Positions 11,929 through 57,951 of a stretch of 64,000 nt of DNA are shown here, piece by piece. A program made the translations under genes and the position numbers. How positions within the stretch are numbered: the first letter of the stretch is position 1; every line of letters starts with the position of its first letter. Source of the stretch: Dehalococcoidia bacterium. GTDB lineage: Bacteria > Chloroflexota > Dehalococcoidia > GIF9 > UBA5629. The stretch covers positions 32,001 through 96,000 of the forward strand of contig JBEKIW010000004.1 in NCBI GenBank assembly GCA_050011565.1, written 5' to 3'. The notes beneath the pieces are model-generated. The model was given only the letters and a program-made list of their open reading frames with translations, did not search any database and had not been told where the DNA came from.

Positions 11929-12274
11929 GGGGGCGTGAGGCTTCGACAGTGGGAGGCCTACAGGATAGCAGGTCGAGGTGCCATCCACCTCGTTAAACAG
12001 GTGGCAAAAGACAACTGCCGAAGCAGTTCCAATTGCAGCCTAATTAGGTTGCACATTCAACCTGACCTCACCCCGATGGGTTGGGATTGGGTGACGAAAT
12101 GTCGGGGTGCTCCAACCTCGATGTCGATAGAGGTTGGCTAAGAATCATCGACTGGCCTGGCTATTATCGGTCAGCAGAGCCTAGCTAGGTGAGATAAATG
12201 AGCTGACTAAACCTGTAGTATGTTCTGGCAACCTTCTTCTGGACGGGGAGTTCAACCCTCCCCCGCCTCCACCA
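11929..12274 (+). ncRNA. ssrA: tmRNA; tag reading frame AEAVPIAA* at 12017-12043
   Basis: 5' GGGGGCG...TTCGAC and 3' GGACGGGGAGTTCAACCCTCCCCCGCCTCCACCA tRNA-Ala-like ends with G3:U; tag ends in AA; follows smpB. Confidence 0.96.
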
Positions 12275-14889: not shown

Positions 14890-15939
14890 TCAAACAACAA
14901 GTATTTTGCCCTGCGGCTTACTAATTACTTCTCCGACAATAGCTGCCTCCGATATGCCGGCTTTTTTCAGCCTTTCTAGGAGTAGCTCAGCCTCTTCTGG
15001 GGCCAGGGAGATTAGCAGCCCGCCTGAGGTTTGAGGGTCGAAGAGAATATCCTGGATATAGTCGGGCACCTGCTTGGAGAACTCCACCATTTTGCCGTAG
15101 AACTCCCTGTTTCTTTTTAAACCACCGGGACAAAGACCTGCTTTGGCGAAATCTACTACTTCTGTGAAGACCGGAACCGAGCTCGAATGTACTTTCATGC
15201 CTACCTGGCTGTTTTGGGCCAGCTGGCAGGCGTGACCGAGAAGGCCGAAGCCGGTTATATCGGTGCAGGCATGAACTTCCAACTCTTGCATCAGTTCCGA
15301 GGCTTTTTTGTTTAGTGATGCCATATACTTCGTTATCTTGGCTACGGTTTCTTTGCTGGCTTTACCGGCTTTCAAGGCAGTGCTGATGATTCCGGTTCCA
15401 AGTGGCTTGGTGAGGACGAGTTTATCTCCTACCTTAGCTCCGGCATTAGTTATCATGCGTTTGGGATGAACGATACCGGTGACGGAAAGCCCGTATTTTA
15501 GCTCGGCATCGTCTATGCTGTGTCCGCCGACCAGTGTCACGCCGGCTTCCATCATTTTGTCTACCCCGCCCTTGAGGATTTCTTTGAGGATAGAGATGTC
15601 CAGCTTATTTATCGGGAAACAGACTACATTCATGGCGGTCAGAGGCTTGCCGCCCATAGCGTAAACGTCACTTAGCGCATTGGCGACAGCAATCTGGCCG
15701 AAATCGTATGGGTCGTCGACTATAGGCGTGAAGAAATCTATGGTCTGGATTATAGCCAGTTCATCGCTCAGCTTGTAAACGCCGGCATCATCCAGGCTTT
15801 CCATGCCCCGAATCACGTTCTTATCATGTATCATGGGCAAGCCGTACAGGGCTTTGTCTAGGTCTCCCGGACCTAACTTTGAAGCTCAGCCAGCTCCAGT
15901 GACGCTCTCGGTTAGACGGGGATGCATACTCTTATCCAT
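14890..15939 (-). CDS. selD: Selenide, water dikinase SelD; selenoprotein with Sec at codon 18
   Basis: MDKSMHPRLTESVTGAG-U(TGA 15886-15888)-ASKLGPGDL matches the SelD (C/U)xxK active site; DDAGVY, DFFTP, GGHS, DPQTSGGLL downstream. The ORF track starts too late. Confidence 0.97.
15851..15885 (-). promoter_or_regulatory. SECIS element of selD
   Basis: After UGA: GCTTCAAAGT-TAGGTC-CGGGA-GACCTA-GACAAAGC; 6-bp upper stem with a G-containing loop starting 17 nt after the UGA. Confidence 0.85.
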
Positions 15940-16033
15940 TTGTGGCGTATTGTAACATTGGCGATTAGGCGGAAGCAAAGGCTAGATGCCAGCTTTGAAA
16001 CTCGTTCCGAGTATAGTAGAATATCCCTGCACT

Positions 16034-17416
16034 ATGGTAACTGAACTTCGACGGCTTCCCAGCGTAGATAAGGTTATTTCTGATGAGCGAATAAAACAGC
16101 TCCGCGTTCATTATCCGCATGACCTGATTGTGGACCTGGTTCGACGGCATCTCGAGGAAGCTCGCCTCTCCATCACGCGCGGCAGCCCATCTCCTTCCCT
16201 GGATAAGATTGTGGACTTTATCCAGTCCGAATTGCAGGCACTGGAACAGCTCAGCCTGCGCCCGGTTATAAATGCCAGCGGAATAATACTTCATACCAAT
16301 TTAGGTCGTGCCCCGCTCAGTAAAGAGGCAAGGACAGCAATGGAGGTGATTGCCACAGGGTATTGCAACCTGGAGTTCGACCTTGACAGAGGAGCACGGG
16401 GTTCAAGAGATGTTCACATTGAAAAACTTCTATGCCAGTTGACCGGCGCTGAGTCAGCGATGGTGGTAAACAACAATGCCTCCGCAGTATTACTGGCTCT
16501 CACAGCCCTGGCTAAAAAGAAAGAAGTGATTGTTTCACGAGGCCAGGCCGTAGAAATAGGGGGTGGCTTTCGCATCCCTGATGTTATGCGACAGAGCGGG
16601 GCAAAGCTGATAGAGGTAGGCACCACTAACTGCACCTACATTAACGACTATGAGCAAGCGATTAGTCCACGAACAGCGGCTCTGCTACGTGTGCATGCCA
16701 GCAATTTCAGAGTCGAGGGTTTTACTCATTCGGTTGATATCGAGGAACTGGCGGCGCTGGGTAAGAAGCATGATATACCTGTGCTGGATGATTTAGGCAG
16801 CGGTTGTCTACTGGATACAACTACCTTCGGGCTTGCCGGAGAGCCCATGGTACAGCAGAGCGTTTCGCTTGGTGTTAAGCTGGCTTGTTTCTCCGGGGAC
16901 AAGCTCATTGGCGGACCTCAAGCCGGGATTATTGTGGGCAGGAAAGCCATGGTCGACAAGTTAAAAAGGCATGCGCTGGCCCGGGCAGTGCGAATTGACA
17001 AGATAAGGCTTGCCGGTCTGGCCGCAACATTAATTCACTACTTGAAGGGTGAAGCTCTGGAGAAAATTCCAATCTGGCGAATGATTTCGGCACCTCTTGA
17101 TGAAATCGATAGACGAGCCAGACTCTGGGCGAAAGCACTTGGTGATTTGGCACAGGTGGTGGAAGGTGAGACCATGGTTGGTGGCGGCAGCCTTCCTGGC
17201 AGCACGCTTCAAACCAGGCTGGTGGCTATCGGCGGTAAGCAAGGTGGCAGAACCACAGTCCTTTCTTTAGATCGAAAACTGAGGCACAATGTGCCACCGG
17301 TCATCGGCCGTATCAGCGACGATGTTCTACTCCTCGACCCAAGAACAGTTCTTGGCGAGGAGGATAATATTGTGTTGCAGGCGCTTAAAACAGCGACTAC
17401 CGGCCTGAATCGATGA
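16034..17416 (+). CDS. selA: L-seryl-tRNA(Sec) selenium transferase
   Basis: RRLPSVD, INASGIILHTNLGRA, VNNNA, EIGGGFR, EVGTTN, FSGDKL.GGPQAG. ATG 16034 preferred over 15986. Confidence 0.97.
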   Translation: MVTELRRLPSVDKVISDERIKQLRVHYPHDLIVDLVRRHLEEARLSITRGSPSPSLDKIVDFIQSELQALEQLSLRPVINASGIILHTNLGRAPLSKEARTAMEVIATGYCNLEFDLDRGARGSRDVHIEKLLCQLTGAESAMVVNNNASAVLLALTALAKKKEVIVSRGQAVEIGGGFRIPDVMRQSGAKLIEVGTTNCTYINDYEQAISPRTAALLRVHASNFRVEGFTHSVDIEELAALGKKHDIPVLDDLGSGCLLDTTTFGLAGEPMVQQSVSLGVKLACFSGDKLIGGPQAGIIVGRKAMVDKLKRHALARAVRIDKIRLAGLAATLIHYLKGEALEKIPIWRMISAPLDEIDRRARLWAKALGDLAQVVEGETMVGGGSLPGSTLQTRLVAIGGKQGGRTTVLSLDRKLRHNVPPVIGRISDDVLLLDPRTVLGEEDNIVLQALKTATTGLNR

Positions 17417-17509: not shown

Positions 17510-19357
17510 ATGTTTGTCGTAGGTACTGCCGGACATATAGACCACGGTAAATCGGTTCTGATAAAAGCCTTAACGGGGATAGACCCGGACCGGTTGCGCG
17601 AGGAAAAAGAACGGGGCATGACCATTGACCTCGGTTTTGCCTGGCTGAAATTACCCAGTGGGCAGGAAGTGGGAGTTGTTGATGTTCCGGGACACGAACG
17701 CTTTGTAAGAAACATGCTGGCTGGGGTAGGCGGCATAGATTTAGCTTTGCTTATCGTAGCAGCTGATGAGGGCGTGATGCCTCAGACCAGAGAGCATTTA
17801 GCCATACTCGATTTACTTGACATAACAAAAGGGATTGTAGTCATCACTAAAAAAGACCTGGTGGATGAGGAGTTGCTGAGCCTGGTCAAGCTGGAGATTG
17901 AAGAGGTAGTAAAGTCGACTAGCTTAGCCCGGTCGCCTATCGTCGCCGTATCGGCAGTCAGTGGTGAGGGGATGGCAGACCTTGTTTCCAGTATAGACCA
18001 TGTTCTAGCGTCCACTGAGCCGAGGAAGGACATCGGCAGGCCGAGGCTTATGATAGACCGCGCTTTCACCATAGCCGGCTCGGGCACGGTAGTAACCGGA
18101 ACATTAGTCGATGGCTCACTAACGGCAGGGCAGGAGGTGGAAATCCTGCCCTCGGGAATCAAAGCCAGGCTCCGGGGATTACAGACTCACAAGACTCGCA
18201 TTGATATGGCTAATCCGGGCAGTCGGGTGGCAGCTAACCTGACCGGAGTGGCAACTTCTCAATTGGAACGTGGTGACGTGCTCACTACGCCAGGGTGGTT
18301 GGTGACGACAACCAGGGTGGACGTAAGCCTTCGTATGCTTTCAAATCTTAAACATCCCTTACGTCATGGTACTCCGGTCGGTTTTTTTACAGGTGCTGCT
18401 GAGGTAATGGCCAAAGTTCACCTGCTGGAAAAAGAAAAGCTGGATTCTGGAGATATTTCCTGGGCCCAACTCACCCTGTCTAAGCCGGTGGCATTGGTTA
18501 AGAGTGACCACTTCATTATCCGCTCACCGATGGATACATTGGGAGGTGGTGTGATTGTGGAGTCGCACGCACTGAGACATCGCCGATTTCGACCGGATGT
18601 AATTCAAAACCTGAGGATAAGGGCAGAGGGAACCGTGGCTGACGTTGTAATTGCCACTCTGGAGGCGAACCAGCCCTCGGGACTAGAGGAGCTGGCAGTC
18701 CAGTGTGATTTGGGAACTGATGAAACTCATGAAGTCGTCAGTAAGCTTGTTAACGATGGAAAGGTGGTAATGGTGGGGCAGGGGAAACAAAGCCTTCTCT
18801 TTACCGGTTCGGGTTGGGAACAATTGGCTAAAAAAGCGGAAGATATCGTGAGGAATTATCATCGAAAATTACCCACCCGTGCCGGAATACCCAAGGGTGA
18901 GCTAAGCAGTAAGTTGAAACTATCGCCGACTTCTGCCGCATTGCAGAGACTTTTCGAATCTGGTGTTCTGGTTGAAGAGGGCGCGGCTGTTCATCTACCT
19001 TCTTATCGGATCCAACTTTCCCAGCGACAACAAGAAAAAGTAAATAACTTTCTCCGTGTCTTGAAGGAGAATCCTTATTCTCCACCCGGCGATATAACAT
19101 TGGAACCCGACCTGCTGAATTTGCTTATTGAGCAGCAACAGGCCGTGAAAGTAAGCGATGGAGTAGTCTTTTCCGCAGCTGCCTATGAGGAAATGGTGAA
19201 TAAAGTTACGGCTTATGCCAGGACAAAGGGTAAAGTGACCCTTGCTGAAGTCCGAGACATGCTAGGCACCAGCCGGAAATATGCCCAGGCACTTCTGGAA
19301 TATATGGACGAGAAAAAAATCACCCGCCGGGTTGGTGACGAGCGAATACTGAGATAA
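17510..19357 (+). CDS. selB: Selenocysteine-specific elongation factor SelB
   Basis: [38 protein letters not shown]-terminal SRKYA winged helix. Confidence 0.98.
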
Positions 19358-20065
19358 CTAATACTGTTTGATAAATTGGCCGTTGTCCTCGTAGAAATAC
19401 CAGGAGCCATTATCAGCTGAGTTTACCGGACAGGTTTTGATTACACTCCACATCCCGTTGCCTAGATATTGAGCAGTAAAAGTCGCTGCGGCGTCCTCAT
19501 ACTGAGGACAGCTGGCAGTACTTCAGCCGGTCCTCATGGTTTGTAACCGACAATCAGGGCTAAGCTGCTTGGCAGCGGCAATGACCTGGTCTATAGTGTA
19601 GGCAGGTGAATCGGAGACGGGTTTTGGTTTCTGTTGCCCGGTCGTGCCAGCCGTAACGGGTGGAGTTGTGGGAGGGGATTGGCCGCCGAAGTTATACCCG
19701 CCAAGCCAGTTAGATGAATCTCCCTGGCTGCTCGTACCAACAGCGTAGATGATTCCTACCAGGAAGAAAATGATGGCTACGACGATAAGATAGCGTCCAA
19801 TATGACCTATAGGCCTTTGTACCTTATATTCTACATCAGCCGCGTTTCTGTAATGGGTGTATTCAACTCCGCTGGCTGGGGGACTGGCATGCTGCGCCAG
19901 GTGGTACAGCTTTCCACCACAATTGGTGCAAAACCCGGATGAAGTTCCAACTGCGGTTCCACAGTGGCGACATCTGTATTCGAAGCGCTGGCCACATGTG
20001 TTGCAGAAATGCTGCCCCACGGGGATTTGAGCACCACACTTAGGACACGGAAACGATTGCTGCAA
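19358..20065 (-). CDS. Double zinc-ribbon membrane protein, predicted selenoprotein (235 aa, Sec at codon 181 if the UGA is read through)
   Basis: N-terminal CxxC x4, TM helix, Pro/Thr linker, then ...SPDCRLQTMRTG-TGA(19523-25)-STASCPQY...GSWYFYEDNGQFIKQY-TAG(19358-60), with a SECIS-like hairpin after the TGA. The part up to 19523 is certain; the extension is predicted. Confidence 0.75.
19493..19509 (-). promoter_or_regulatory. Candidate SECIS hairpin
   Basis: GTCCTCA-GTA-TGAGGAC, a perfect 7-bp stem starting 13 nt after the UGA with a loop beginning in G; lower pairing CTGC/GCAG and AAGT/ACTT. Confidence 0.7.
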
Positions 20066-20388
20066 CTTGGACTCCGTTTCTTCTTATATACATGTTACTG
20101 CGCAATCTAAGCCGTATGCAAATCCGTCCGAAACCAGTTATATACCCGGCGGAAGCAAAGCAGGAAATCTCCATATTTTCGTCATCTTATAGTCCCCTTC
20201 CTTTTATTTAATAGAGGGCAGTTATTATGCAAATCGGGCACCTGGTACTTATGTCTGCATAATTCGTGGTACCTAAGTGTCTCGTGGAAACAGTACTAAT
20301 TCATCATGTTTTGTTTATTGCCCTATGTGAAAATAACAATGTAGATATCAAGCCAACTGATGACACGCTTTATGATAAGGAGGAAGAA

Positions 20389-20854: not shown

Positions 20855-20951
20855 TGGCGGGAGCGTATGGGGGTCGAACCCACCGGAGACACTATCAATG
20901 CCTCCCGACGGATTTGAAGTCCGCGAAGCCCACCGGGACTCAAACGCTCCC
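20855..20951 (-). tRNA. selC: tRNA-Sec (anticodon UCA)
   Basis: GGGAGCGT...GGACTTCAAATCC...long variable arm...GGGTTCGACCCC...ACGCTCCCGCCA; 8-bp acceptor stem, G73, encoded CCA. Confidence 0.97.
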
Positions 20952-28648: not shown

Positions 28649-28885
28649 TCAGCTAAGTTCCAGTACCGAATCTGGACTATTGAATGGTTCGCCGGTTGCT
28701 TGACTGTGTCCTATTGACCAAGGTGCTACTGTTTCACCGCAATACGGGCAACTTCTCATAGCGGGGTCAACATCAACATGGCAATGAACACATTTATGTG
28801 CCAAGCTCTCACCACAAAACCGGCAAAATAGCTGACCCCATCTGTTGGCTCCGCCGCATTTTGGACAAGCTAATATATGTTCCAT
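28649..28885 (-). CDS. Small double zinc-ribbon protein
   Basis: CPKCG..FCRFCG..CVHC..CPYCG. Confidence 0.75.
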   Translation of the reverse strand: MEHILACPKCGGANRWGQLFCRFCGESLAHKCVHCHVDVDPAMRSCPYCGETVAPWSIGHSQATGEPFNSPDSVLELS

Positions 28886-57727: not shown

Positions 57728-57771
57728 AAAAAAACCAAGAGCTTTAGTAACCACTACTAAACCCTTGGTTT
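57728..57771 (-). terminator. Terminator of the TPP riboswitch expression platform
   Basis: AAACCAAGGGTTTAGTA...TACTAAAGCTCTTGGTTTTTTT on the minus strand. Confidence 0.85.
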
Positions 57772-57776
57772 GATTT

Positions 57777-57875
57777 ACCGCTTCCCTACGCTTGTATTAC
57801 CAAGGTCAGGTTCTGACGGTTCTCCGCAATAACGGAGTCTCAGCCTGGTTTATTTTTCTGGGCACCCCTAGCGGT
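57777..57875 (-). ncRNA. TPP riboswitch
   Basis: ACCGCTAGGGGTGC...GGCTGAGA...GAACCTGA...TAATAC.AGCGTAGGGAAGCGGT upstream of thiC. Confidence 0.95.
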
Positions 57876-57951
57876 TAGCTAAAACCAATATTAAATATAT
57901 CATATAACGACGCTGAGAAACAAGTAAATTTTTAGCGAAACCATTGCTTGA

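Follow-up and report, generated by a model that had tools for sequence, protein, structure and literature searches.

The gene described here lies on the minus strand of the window, the 64,000-nucleotide stretch of DNA that was analyzed, where selA, selB, selC, and selD are all found no more than 6 kb away from it (Table 1). Its open reading frame (20065-19523) runs for 180 codons to a TGA, after which a further 54 codons remain open before a TAG. A first-pass annotation made from the sequence had claimed that this opening abuts the selB stop, and the coordinates bear this out, with the TAG at 19358-19360 and the end of selB at 19357. It had also claimed that the window holds the entire SelA/B/C/D machinery, which was confirmed by domain matches and by the tRNA-Sec, and that selD carries a SECIS element of similar layout; selD does have an in-frame TGA, and a hairpin whose loop is rich in G comes after it. 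Translation through the TGA gave a product with the arrangement C172-x8-U181-x4-C186 and a further Cys, C212, just as the predicted pattern of C-x8-U-x4-C plus an extra Cys required. Public gene calls stop at the TGA and yield 10 shortened proteins of 170 to 184 residues.

Table 1. Features of the putative selenoprotein gene and of the sel locus around it
Feature	Position	Strand	Details and evidence
selD, itself encoding a selenoprotein	14890..15939	-	Sec-TGA 15886-15888, GAGUASK; AIRS protein 14890-15840, in-frame TGA
selA	15986..17416	+	PF03841, E 2.5e-140
selB	17510..19357	+	convergent, stop abuts selenoprotein stop; GTP_EFTU and SelB wing domains
Putative selenoprotein gene, complete, 235 aa	19358..20065	-	TTG 20065-20063, Sec-TGA 19525-19523, TAG 19360-19358
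Extracytoplasmic Sec domain (predicted), residues 152-235	19361..19612	-	alignment A1, AlphaFold2 model
SECIS hairpin (putative)	19491..19512	-	lower stem GC (G-C/C-G pairs across bulged U), 7-bp upper stem GUCCUCA/UGAGGAC (GTCCTCA 19509-19503, TGAGGAC 19499-19493), GUA loop (19502-19500); -11.6 kcal/mol
Sec codon UGA, residue 181	19523..19525	-	same alignment column as homologue TGAs
Low-complexity Gly/Pro/Thr/Ser-rich linker, residues 110-151	19613..19738	-	translation; poorly conserved among orthologues
Single TM helix (predicted), about residues 92-109, YLIVVAIIFFLVGIIYAV	19739..19792	-	translation; K81, R84, R91 precede
Cytoplasmic double zinc ribbon (predicted), residues 7-53, four CxxC pairs	19907..20047	-	PF12773, PF13240
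GGAG, Shine-Dalgarno-like, 6 nt 5' of TTG start	20072..20075	-	sequence inspection
tRNA-Sec (selC)	20855..20951	-	790 nt upstream of selenoprotein gene, same strand

The order of genes in the window, with selC followed by the selenoprotein gene and then by convergent selB-selA, was conserved among loci carrying this form. The selB neighbor was kept in all 14 genome loci of the window subtype and in 21 metagenome loci, and of the 28 orthologous loci scanned, 20 had a tRNA-Sec on the same strand, upstream of the gene. A related form (T1b) and a lipoprotein form were found outside sel loci. No conserved transporter neighbor was present among the loci examined, nor was there a conserved sigma-factor or regulator neighbor among the genome loci examined.

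The hairpin downstream of the UGA

A perfect 7-bp hairpin with a G-first loop and a lower stem had been proposed to begin 13 nt past the TGA, and it was found exactly there, with a spacing of 20 nt between the UGA and the loop. Our own simple implementation of the bSECIS criteria, taken from section 5 of PMC13188914, called for a loop of 3 to 9 nt with a G in its first two positions, an upper stem of at least 4 bp, a distance of 16 to 37 nt from the UGA, and a folding energy of -7.5 kcal/mol or lower. The hairpin of the window gene (loop GUA, 7-bp stem, 20 nt, -11.6 kcal/mol) passed, and 38 of 40 homologues passed as well. Its fold z-score was only -1.45, with 16 of 200 shuffled sequences folding equally well, and the probability that 54 codons would remain open by chance is about 0.08 by an arithmetic estimate. 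Since neither the open frame nor the hairpin rises above chance singly, their significance rests on conservation.

Covariation analysis, which had been proposed as a check, revealed that the hairpin is kept in the homologues and that compensatory changes have occurred within it. In the hairpin alignment, 83.9% of the cells were paired, compared to 44 to 56% when the partners were slid, and double changes were present at six of the nine pairs, including pair 23-39 (CG 20, GC 14, GU 4) and pair 25-37 (CG 32, UA 6). The observed covariation score was matched by none of 500 shuffles. The rate of third-position change was 0.09 in the hairpin codons versus 0.38 elsewhere, showing that synonymous change is suppressed there. 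Part of the conservation of the hairpin is protein driven, because it overlaps the peptide motif P-Q/L-Y-E-E/D, and the covariation falls partly between subfamilies, so it reflects only a small number of events.

Conservation of the UGA and of the coding frame beyond it

Across 24 related genomes, 40 homologous domains were aligned, and the TGA fell in one column in every one of them. Each of the 16 near-full-length matches (from 15 related genomes, with 42 to 75% identity over residues 1 to 235) had one in-frame TGA, and exactly one was likewise present in each of the 61 best matches among the 77 species genomes of the taxonomic family. Metagenomes provided 119 loci, among which all 92 members of the protein family, comprising 81 distinct domains, carried the Sec-TGA, with neither TGG nor TGY occurring at that site. 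A DNA-pattern scan of the metagenomes also returned 13 TGG matches, all of them unrelated sequences. Both the TGA and the frame downstream of it were conserved down to about 38% identity. The first-pass annotation had named homologues ending with TAA or TAG at this site, or a loss of coding conservation after it, as evidence that would count against its proposal. No such homologue was found among the 40 domains and the 92 metagenome members, and the region 3' of the UGA was conserved as coding sequence: the invariant residues W61, K65, C67, W77, and F79 (alignment A1) all lie downstream of the UGA, and pairwise divergence there was 0.19, 0.16, and 0.35 by codon position.

The occurrence of the gene was also compared to that of SelA across the 77 genomes of the taxonomic family. 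The domain and SelA were found together in 31 genomes, the domain only in 7, SelA only in 7, and neither in 32. A UGA-containing gene in genomes without sel genes had been listed as a further point against the proposal; the seven genomes that have the gene but no detectable SelA are all at most 88% complete, and in one of these the sel locus coincides with a scaffold gap of 100 N. In a class-level sample of 400 genomes, the selenoprotein domain was found in this taxonomic family only.

Related forms with Sec, Cys, or neither

A lipoprotein paralogue in the same genome has the Sec domain as well, preceded there by a lipobox signal peptide. The spacing of the partner Cys varies, being U-x4-C in the window protein and CxU, UxC, or UC in paralogues, and 78 of the 81 distinct metagenome domains had a Cys no more than five residues from U. 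A search for Cys/UGA pairs at position 181, another of the proposed checks, identified three homologues with Cys at the Sec position, all known as protein sequences (P0013, P0018, and P0022), one of which, P0018, is a fusion with a thioredoxin-fold domain of the AhpC/TSA / ResA-like type. These three were the only Cys homologues among 71 matches in 1.84 billion representatives, a number that is unusually low for a selenoprotein. When the Cys form P0013 was sought in 400 sampled Chloroflexota genomes, only Sec forms of the family were found.

Six database proteins, known from protein records, instead had Trp at the Sec position. They came from contigs of 545 to 1595 bp and appeared in the tree as scattered sisters of Sec-containing sequences, and if the Trp were genuine, about five separate changes from Sec to Trp would be required. 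Because of the short contigs and the scattered positions, we read these Trp residues as putative UGA codons that were translated under a table in which TGA encodes Trp.

The Sec domain is also related to a group of Sec-less small lipoproteins (P0035, P0042, P0077, and others; HMM E 1e-20 to 8e-4), which formed its sister clade in the tree (99/99). These lipoproteins, which are marked by the motifs DIPRYTADQVI ... WYFYEDTGKL and include a copy in a related genome (L190), share its scaffold, and most also share its two Cys, but they contain a short connection in place of the Sec/Cys loop. Like the Sec domain, they are without Pfam or NCBIfam annotation. The lipoprotein form has a conserved neighbor, a 4-Cys protein found in 57 of the 77 genomes of the taxonomic family, including lineages without Sec. 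This protein had no Pfam or NCBIfam match, its model had a mean pLDDT of 49.8, too low to be of use, and its listed database relatives were unnamed or called hypothetical protein. Because genomes lacking the selenoprotein carry this protein too, it offers no clue to function and was dropped.

We considered whether the gene might not encode a selenoprotein at all, the TGA being a true stop or the mark of a decayed gene, with a frame left open by chance, or a codon for another residue such as Trp. The hairpin taken alone, the six Trp-bearing proteins, and the public calls ending at the TGA are all compatible with this explanation, but we judge it to be exceedingly unlikely. The TGA and the frame beyond it persist in 40/40 and 92/92 sequences at the divergence described above, the pattern of change by codon position is that of coding sequence, the Trp-bearing proteins derive from short contigs and would demand repeated independent changes, and none of the metagenome TGG matches belongs to the family. 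TGA is otherwise a stop in these organisms, where it terminates selD and several members of the protein family, and its reassignment was rejected on these grounds. A pseudogene was rejected on conservation. A separate downstream open reading frame was also rejected, as the predicted domain has its helix before the UGA and its sheet after it and so spans the codon. It is very likely, from the conservation of its sequence, that the product of this gene is a selenoprotein.

Architecture and predicted fold

The N-terminal region matched the double zinc ribbon (DZR) model PF12773 over residues 7 to 50 (E 4.2e-10, 40.1 bits, above the cut-off of 27.3) and PF13240 (E 1.8e-10). An N-in topology is suggested both by the positive-inside rule and by the lipoprotein paralogues, in which the Sec domain is exported, and a single-pass protein with an exported C-terminal domain is therefore supported. 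The DZR match, the helix with K/R on its N side, and the lipobox paralogues all fit the single-pass architecture first described, in which a double zinc ribbon lies in the cytoplasm and a domain is exported.

The Sec domain of about 85 residues is predicted to be of the alpha+beta type, with a helix, Cys172, the Sec loop, four or five beta strands, and Cys212. Its AlphaFold2 model had a mean pLDDT of 84.5, with low confidence in the Sec loop (mean pLDDT of 60 for model residues 31 to 40), and placed Sec181 between the first two strands, on a loop of some 13 residues that is poorly ordered. Both Cys172 and Cys212 are invariant, and most of the relatives that have neither the loop nor Sec possess them as well. 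The best matches in a fold search were PepSY domains, with VIA-align Z scores of 5.5 to 6.9 over 57 to 61 residues, a range that is rated common; these were the YpeB C-terminal domain (5boi, 6.9), YpmB (2gu3, 6.1), CD1622 (4exr, 5.9), and UipA (7atk, 5.5). Foldseek returned nothing from the PDB at E <= 0.001, a profile search for sequence relatives in the PDB gave none beyond a chance row at E 9.7, and the PepSY model PF03413 was absent from the Pfam matches of 40 members at E <= 1. Taken together, these results weakly suggest a PepSY-like arrangement. The Sec domain would share with PepSY proteins a single helix on an antiparallel sheet of four or five strands, an extracytoplasmic location, and frequent anchoring by a membrane helix or lipid, but it differs from PepSY domains in the presence of Sec, in the 13-residue loop, which is an insertion, and in the lack of a PF03413 match. 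The domain was also compared to the thioredoxin fold and did not resemble it, having a helix and an antiparallel sheet in the model, variable U-Cys spacing, and no match to a thioredoxin-family Pfam model.

In its overall layout of N-terminal DZR, TM helix, and variable outer domain, the protein is like the DZR-anchored single-pass proteins of the TcaA type, but its outer domain is a selenoprotein domain, and the NCBIfam match of its N-terminal part to TcaA-type proteins was weak (E 3e-5), with 23 bits lying far below the cut-off of 550. This layout, along with the position of the gene in a sel locus, is what might be expected of a transmembrane sensor similar to an anti-sigma factor, in which the zinc ribbon would hold a regulator while the Sec domain reports redox or selenium status, and in which selenium scarcity would cause termination at the UGA and leave a protein without the sensing domain. 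Such a sensor is very unlikely, because the zinc ribbon and TM helix form a generic anchor in this genome (13 matches, for example on an FN3 / purple-acid-phosphatase-N domain), the lipoprotein paralogues lack a cytoplasmic part altogether, and no sigma factor or regulator is a conserved neighbor.

Comparison to known selenoproteins

No member of the Sec domain group had a match in Pfam-A 2025 better than E 0.005, and none matched a selenoprotein family; NCBIfam release 20 matched the zinc-ribbon part only, with nothing on the Sec domain. The first-pass annotation had recognized no known selenoprotein family in the protein, and this was upheld for the 119 families of a 2026 catalogue (Table 1 of PMC13188914), none of which fit when judged by the domain identifiers among the matches. 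Nearly all entries in that table carry a Pfam, NCBIfam, TIGR, cd, or PTHR identifier. For the families of Haft and Tolstoy (2025), the comparison was made by way of the review table and NCBIfam release 20, and the supplementary family lists of BSepDB and deep-Sep, which lie outside the comparison, might list this family. A full-text literature search combining selenocysteine with PepSY found nothing, and the family was not described in the titles and opening parts of abstracts of the literature on selenoproteins and Dehalococcoidia. The literature comparison covered portions of PMC13188914, PMC13326102, and PMC12013277.

Like the canonical bacterial selenoproteins SelD and FdhA, the gene has an in-frame UGA with a G-first apical loop within 16 to 37 nt, and it would rely on selA, selB, selC, and selD, which here lie beside it. 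Unlike SelD and FdhA, it belongs to an unrelated protein family whose Sec domain is without a Pfam, NCBIfam, or catalogue match. The protein also resembles the exported thiol-disulfide selenoproteins catalogued in the 2026 review (the UGC-containing TlpA family, DsbA-like and DsbG-like proteins, and the thiol:disulfide interchange protein) in being extracytoplasmic and in having a Sec adjoining a Cys with a presumed redox role, and P0018 is fused to a TlpA/ResA-like domain. Conversely, those proteins have thioredoxin folds and a fixed UxxC, CxxU, or UGC.

Proposed decoding and role of the Sec/Cys loop

We consider it highly probable that this gene encodes a genuine selenoprotein of an uncatalogued family, decoded through SelB and the hairpin, with the Sec/Cys loop as its proposed working site. 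SelB from the adjoining gene would bind the 7- to 9-bp hairpin 13 nt past UGA-181 and deliver Sec-tRNA(Sec) there, allowing translation to run for 54 more codons. In the product, a TM helix and a flexible linker would join a double zinc ribbon in the cytoplasm to an extracytoplasmic alpha+beta domain of about 85 residues, within which Cys172 and Cys212 may form a structural disulfide while Sec181 and its partner Cys would serve as the working site. The loop would be either redox active, as a selenenylsulfide couple, or a soft-ligand site for chalcogen or metal outside the cytoplasm, and it is probably serviced by thioredoxin-like reductases of the TlpA/ResA type.

It is possible, if on the doubtful side, that the loop of this selenoprotein is not a catalytic couple and serves instead to bind selenium, sulfur, or a soft metal on the outer side of the cell, capturing it or passing it on. 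In that case the copy in the sel locus would help the Sec pathway to acquire or sense selenium. The fixed location of the window form between selC and selB in the loci counted above points in this direction, although this position may merely reflect co-regulation of a Sec-dependent gene, and the T1b and lipoprotein forms lie outside sel loci. The varied Cys spacing (CxU, UxC, UC, and Ux4C) is more in keeping with a flexible chelating loop than with a fixed site of the CxxU type. UipA, one of the fold look-alikes, is a membrane-anchored PepSY protein that was solved with bound uranium, but the fold match is weak. The 2026 review (PMC13188914) states that in SaoB, SaoC, and proteins related to them, Sec may coordinate a metal. 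Against a binding role here, no transporter is a conserved neighbor. A more specific and unlikely version is that the sel-locus copy is a dedicated, Sec-dependent outer component of selenium supply, whose tethered Sec/Cys loop would capture or sense selenium species from the environment on behalf of the Sec pathway encoded by the surrounding genes. Since synthesis of the protein would itself track selenium availability, this would create a self-reinforcing circuit, and no such circuit is described in those portions of the literature that were compared.

The favored reading, a selenoprotein of an uncatalogued family with a proposed Sec/Cys working site, would enlarge the bacterial selenoproteome by one well-supported family. 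BSepDB lists two Dehalococcoidia among the 10 bacteria richest in selenoproteins. Most characterized selenoproteins have a thioredoxin fold according to the 2026 review (PMC13188914); the new family would provide a different scaffold, and in an exported protein. Nearly all of the members found use Sec and not Cys, so methods that depend on Cys homologues are likely to miss the family, a limit that the deep-Sep authors themselves state. Public annotation shortens the protein at the UGA or, on short contigs, seems to read the UGA as Trp. Because the gene holds a fixed place between selC and selB, a connection to selenium handling can be put to the test.

The selenoprotein gene and its surroundings

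On the minus strand of the window, 180 codons lead up to a TGA at 19525-19523 and are followed by 54 further open codons before the TAG; the read-through product has 235 residues and carries C172-x8-U181-x4-C186 plus C212. The open reading frame, TGA, 54-codon extension, and stop abutting selB that the first-pass annotation had described were all reproduced. Its hairpin 13 nt after the TGA and its C-x8-U-x4-C motif with a further Cys were confirmed by sequence and translation, and the SelA, SelB, SelD, and tRNA-Sec of its sel locus were all found around the gene. Taken by themselves, both the hairpin (fold z -1.45) and the open frame after the TGA are within chance, and the case for this gene rests on comparison.

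Positions of the selenoprotein gene, its hairpin, and other features in the window
Feature	Position	Strand	Remarks
Selenoprotein ORF	TTG start 20065-20063; TAG stop 19360-19358	-	GGAG six bases 5' of start
Hairpin GTCCTCA-GTA-TGAGGAC	19509-19493	-	Starts thirteen bases 3' of TGA; two-pair lower stem across bulged U
SelA	15986-17416		
SelB	17510-19357		Convergent to selenoprotein gene; stop at 19357 directly abuts its TAG
SelD	14890-15939	-	Itself a selenoprotein; Sec-TGA 15886-15888
tRNA-Sec	20855-20951	-	Strand shared with selenoprotein gene
tmRNA	11929-12274	+	Tag AEAVPIAA; close to sel locus
TPP riboswitch	57766-57879	-	

The convergent selB and selenoprotein genes meet at their stop codons (19355-19360), with zero intergenic bases, which leaves no space for a terminator, so that the two transcripts must overlap or end within the opposite gene. 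The selD product begins MDKSMHPRLTESVTGAGUASK..., its automatic ORF call starting only downstream of the Sec-TGA, and a hairpin of its own, AGGUC-CGGGA-GACCU, lies approximately 11 nt 3' of the UGA. The order tmRNA-selD-selA-selB was also seen in metagenome loci L076, L108, L121, and L134.

Conservation of the UGA and of the sequence beyond it

A six-frame search with the read-through product covered the window's own genome and 60 relatives, 61 in all. It returned 16 near-full-length matches in 15 genomes, with 42-75% identity and exactly one in-frame TGA each, as well as a second set spanning only residues ~150-232, again with one TGA each and with one copy elsewhere in the window's own genome. 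Similarity thus continues past one shared TGA, on both sides of which the first-pass annotation had proposed to look for it. When 40 Sec domains were excised from 24 genomes and aligned (alignment A1), the TGA fell in a single column in 40 of 40, with no homologue stopping there at TAA or TAG; locus L039, offset by two columns in a first alignment, is in register in A1. Across the whole taxonomic family (77 species genomes), each of the 61 best matches has exactly one TGA. Of the 72 matches listed for these genomes, 65 carry a single TGA. The 7 that carry none are two short fragments, both halves of one copy with a frameshift at the Sec site, half of a second frameshifted copy (the front part; its TGA is in the rear half), and two relatives that lack the Sec loop; one further relative (L192, in genome G461) is weaker. 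Lipoprotein-form copies L193 (G012:C5) and L194 (G007:C7) have a frameshift at the Sec loop or close to it, which could be assembly error or gene decay, and the L194 frame additionally continues into the adjoining four-Cys gene.

Public metagenome contigs were scanned for GGC-TGN, its third base left free, followed by the hairpin core, a pattern that demands the hairpin and so counts only forms that have it. This gave 119 loci, 92 of them family members by HMM (81 distinct domains). The free base gives TGA in 91 of the 92; the exception is a locus where the pattern had hit a Cys codon two residues before the real TGA. Neither TGG nor TGY was found at the Sec site in the metagenome family, the TGG (13/13) and other TGY matches being unrelated sequences. 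Several members use TGA twice, first as a Sec-TGA with the hairpin and then, ~50 codons on, as a terminal TGA without it (loci L010, L022, L032, L033, L043, L046, and several metagenome loci). The terminal stop of selD in the window is also TGA, and TGA is thus an ordinary stop in these organisms.

The invariant residues of the 40-domain alignment are C27, U36, W61, K65, C67, W77, and F79 (domain numbering), most of them after the UGA. In the 54 post-UGA codons of 13 orthologues, mean pairwise divergence at codon positions 1/2/3 was 0.19/0.16/0.35, which, at the level of sequence, is a signature of translation past the UGA. Both results contradict an absence of coding conservation downstream, which the first-pass annotation had named as grounds for rejection.

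The hairpin as a SECIS element

[quoted passage not shown] The window hairpin fits, with a GUA loop, a 7-bp stem, 20-nt spacing, and -11.6 kcal/mol, as do 38 of 40 homologues in our own simple implementation of the consensus as given there. In the 40-sequence DNA alignment, 83.9% of stem cells were paired, compared to 44-56% when partners were slid by 1-3 columns, and six of nine stem pairs had changes on both sides (pair 23-39: CG 20, GC 14, GU 4; pair 25-37: CG 32, UA 6). The covariation proposed as a check in the first-pass annotation was present, its score being reached by 0 of 500 shuffles; much of it splits between subfamilies, so that few independent events are involved. A second caveat is that the hairpin overlaps the conserved peptide P-Q/L-Y-E-E/D, which leaves part of its conservation attributable to the protein. 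Some changes alter the protein in a way that preserves pairing: Asp changes to Glu jointly with the codon on the opposite strand of the stem, and in one member Gly replaces an otherwise near-invariant Glu, along with CCC for CCU. Third-position divergence was 0.09 in hairpin codons versus 0.38 in the other post-UGA codons. Comparison across homologues shows the UGA of the window gene to be, by sequence criteria, a decoded codon. SelB acting with a SECIS is the sole known route by which such a UGA could be decoded here.

Distribution with the Sec machinery

Among 400 genomes sampled evenly across the class, the domain was found in members of this family alone, and a search of 400 sampled genomes of the phylum with a Cys form gave the same picture. 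Among the 77 family genomes, the TGA-bearing domain and SelA were both detected in 31 and neither in 32; the domain occurred without detected SelA in 7, and SelA without the domain in 7. The first-pass annotation had named a UGA in genomes without selABC as grounds for rejection, and this check, too, favours a selenoprotein: the 7 genomes without detected SelA among 38 domain genomes are all 62-88% complete, and of the five inspected for a sel locus, two have parts of one and three gave borderline tRNA matches only. One of the two has SelB and tRNA-Sec; the other has a 100-N scaffold gap exactly at the expected C-terminal gene half and selB, with tRNA-Sec adjoining.

Relatives without Sec

Searched exhaustively with the HMM, 1.84 billion representative proteins gave 71 matches. 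Public gene calls of the window form (T1a) stop at the UGA, at 170-184 aa. Cys occupies the Sec position in three proteins (P0013, P0018, and P0022), one of which, P0018, is fused to an AhpC/TSA or ResA-like thioredoxin-fold domain. Six proteins, on contigs of 545-1595 bp, have Trp there (P0012, P0014-P0017, and P0021). These are scattered in the tree as sisters of Sec rows (e.g., P0012 with L027, support 99/94), so that approximately five separate changes would be needed if the Trp were real; most simply, we infer, a metagenomic gene finder applied a TGA=Trp table to these short contigs and translated TGA codons as Trp. Such artefacts could be mined for selenoproteins. The other matches are small lipoproteins or membrane-anchored proteins that keep the scaffold and mostly both Cys and lack the loop; these loop-less relatives form a separate clade (support 99/99).

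Predicted structure, function, and novelty

AlphaFold2 on the 40-row alignment (mean pLDDT 84.5) predicted a helix at 13-23 followed by six short strands, with Sec36 in a low-confidence loop between strands 28-30 and 44-46 (residues 31-40 block, mean pLDDT 60). Foldseek with this model gave no significant match, and no sequence relative of the domain was found in the PDB. The top fold matches among representatives were PepSY domains (YpeB, Z 6.9; CD1622, Z 6.1; YpmB, Z 5.9; UipA, Z 5.5), a weak resemblance at Z values that are common, and we therefore describe the arrangement as PepSY-like without assigning the domain to PepSY.

Cys172 and Cys212 would form a structural disulfide, since both are kept in most loop-less relatives. 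Sec181 may work together with a nearby Cys; 78 of 81 distinct metagenome domains have a Cys no more than five residues from U, at +5 (40), -2 (21), +2 (13), or +1 (4). The TlpA/ResA-like domain fused to one Cys homologue points to thiol-disulfide chemistry outside the cell. In the main rival reading, for which the variable spacing and the position in the sel locus leave room, the Sec/Cys loop has a putative binding or selenium-handling role.

The Sec domain has no match in Pfam-A (2025 copy) or NCBIfam release 20. PMC13188914 lists 119 selenoprotein families and subfamilies; almost all of them have a domain identifier, and none as listed there fits. As described, BSepDB holds previously reported families only, and deep-Sep, per its authors, may drop candidates without Cys homologues. 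The decoding mechanism is known and the family is probably new, an earlier description in supplementary family lists being possible. It is unusual in that its scaffold is not a thioredoxin fold, its domain is exported, Sec is near-obligate, and the gene keeps a fixed position within the sel locus.

Architectures and synteny

Three forms occur. T1a opens with a double zinc ribbon (Pfam DZR, E 4.2e-10), continues with a single TM helix preceded by K/R and a linker rich in Gly, Pro, and Thr, and ends in the Sec domain, which here has U-x4-C. Its convergent neighbor is selB in 14 of 14 genome loci and in 21 metagenome loci, and 20 of the 28 loci scanned for tRNA-Sec have one upstream on the same strand. 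The conserved order runs selC, selenoprotein gene, convergent selB-selA, with selD next in the window. T1b has the same anchor, and selB is not adjacent in the four loci with enough flank to judge. In T2, a signal peptide with a lipobox Cys precedes the common Sec domain. The window's own genome holds one such lipoprotein, of 115 aa with U-G-C (G000:C2:176703-176972, plus strand; locus L002, 1423-1770), with a zinc-ribbon/TM/FN3-like protein before it and a four-Cys protein after it.

That follower, of 106 aa with four invariant Cys, is conserved after T2, in 27 of the 32 loci from metagenomes and 11 of the 22 from genomes. It was recovered at L002 1810-2127 (plus strand) and 34 other loci with 88% mean column identity, has an invariant C-x2-C-x5-C and a later G-C-P/S, stands beside T2 in several genera, and belongs to Chloroflexota in every source that names a host. 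We found no family assignment, name, or confident structure model for it. Its presence in 57 of the 77 family genomes, including lineages without Sec, rules it out as a T2-specific partner. The zinc-ribbon/TM module has 13 matches in the 2-Mb genome of the window (e.g., window 28730-28876, minus strand; G000:C4:60730-60876), one with an FN3-like outer domain, and recurs in related genomes; it seems to serve as a general cassette for anchoring varied outer domains in the membrane.
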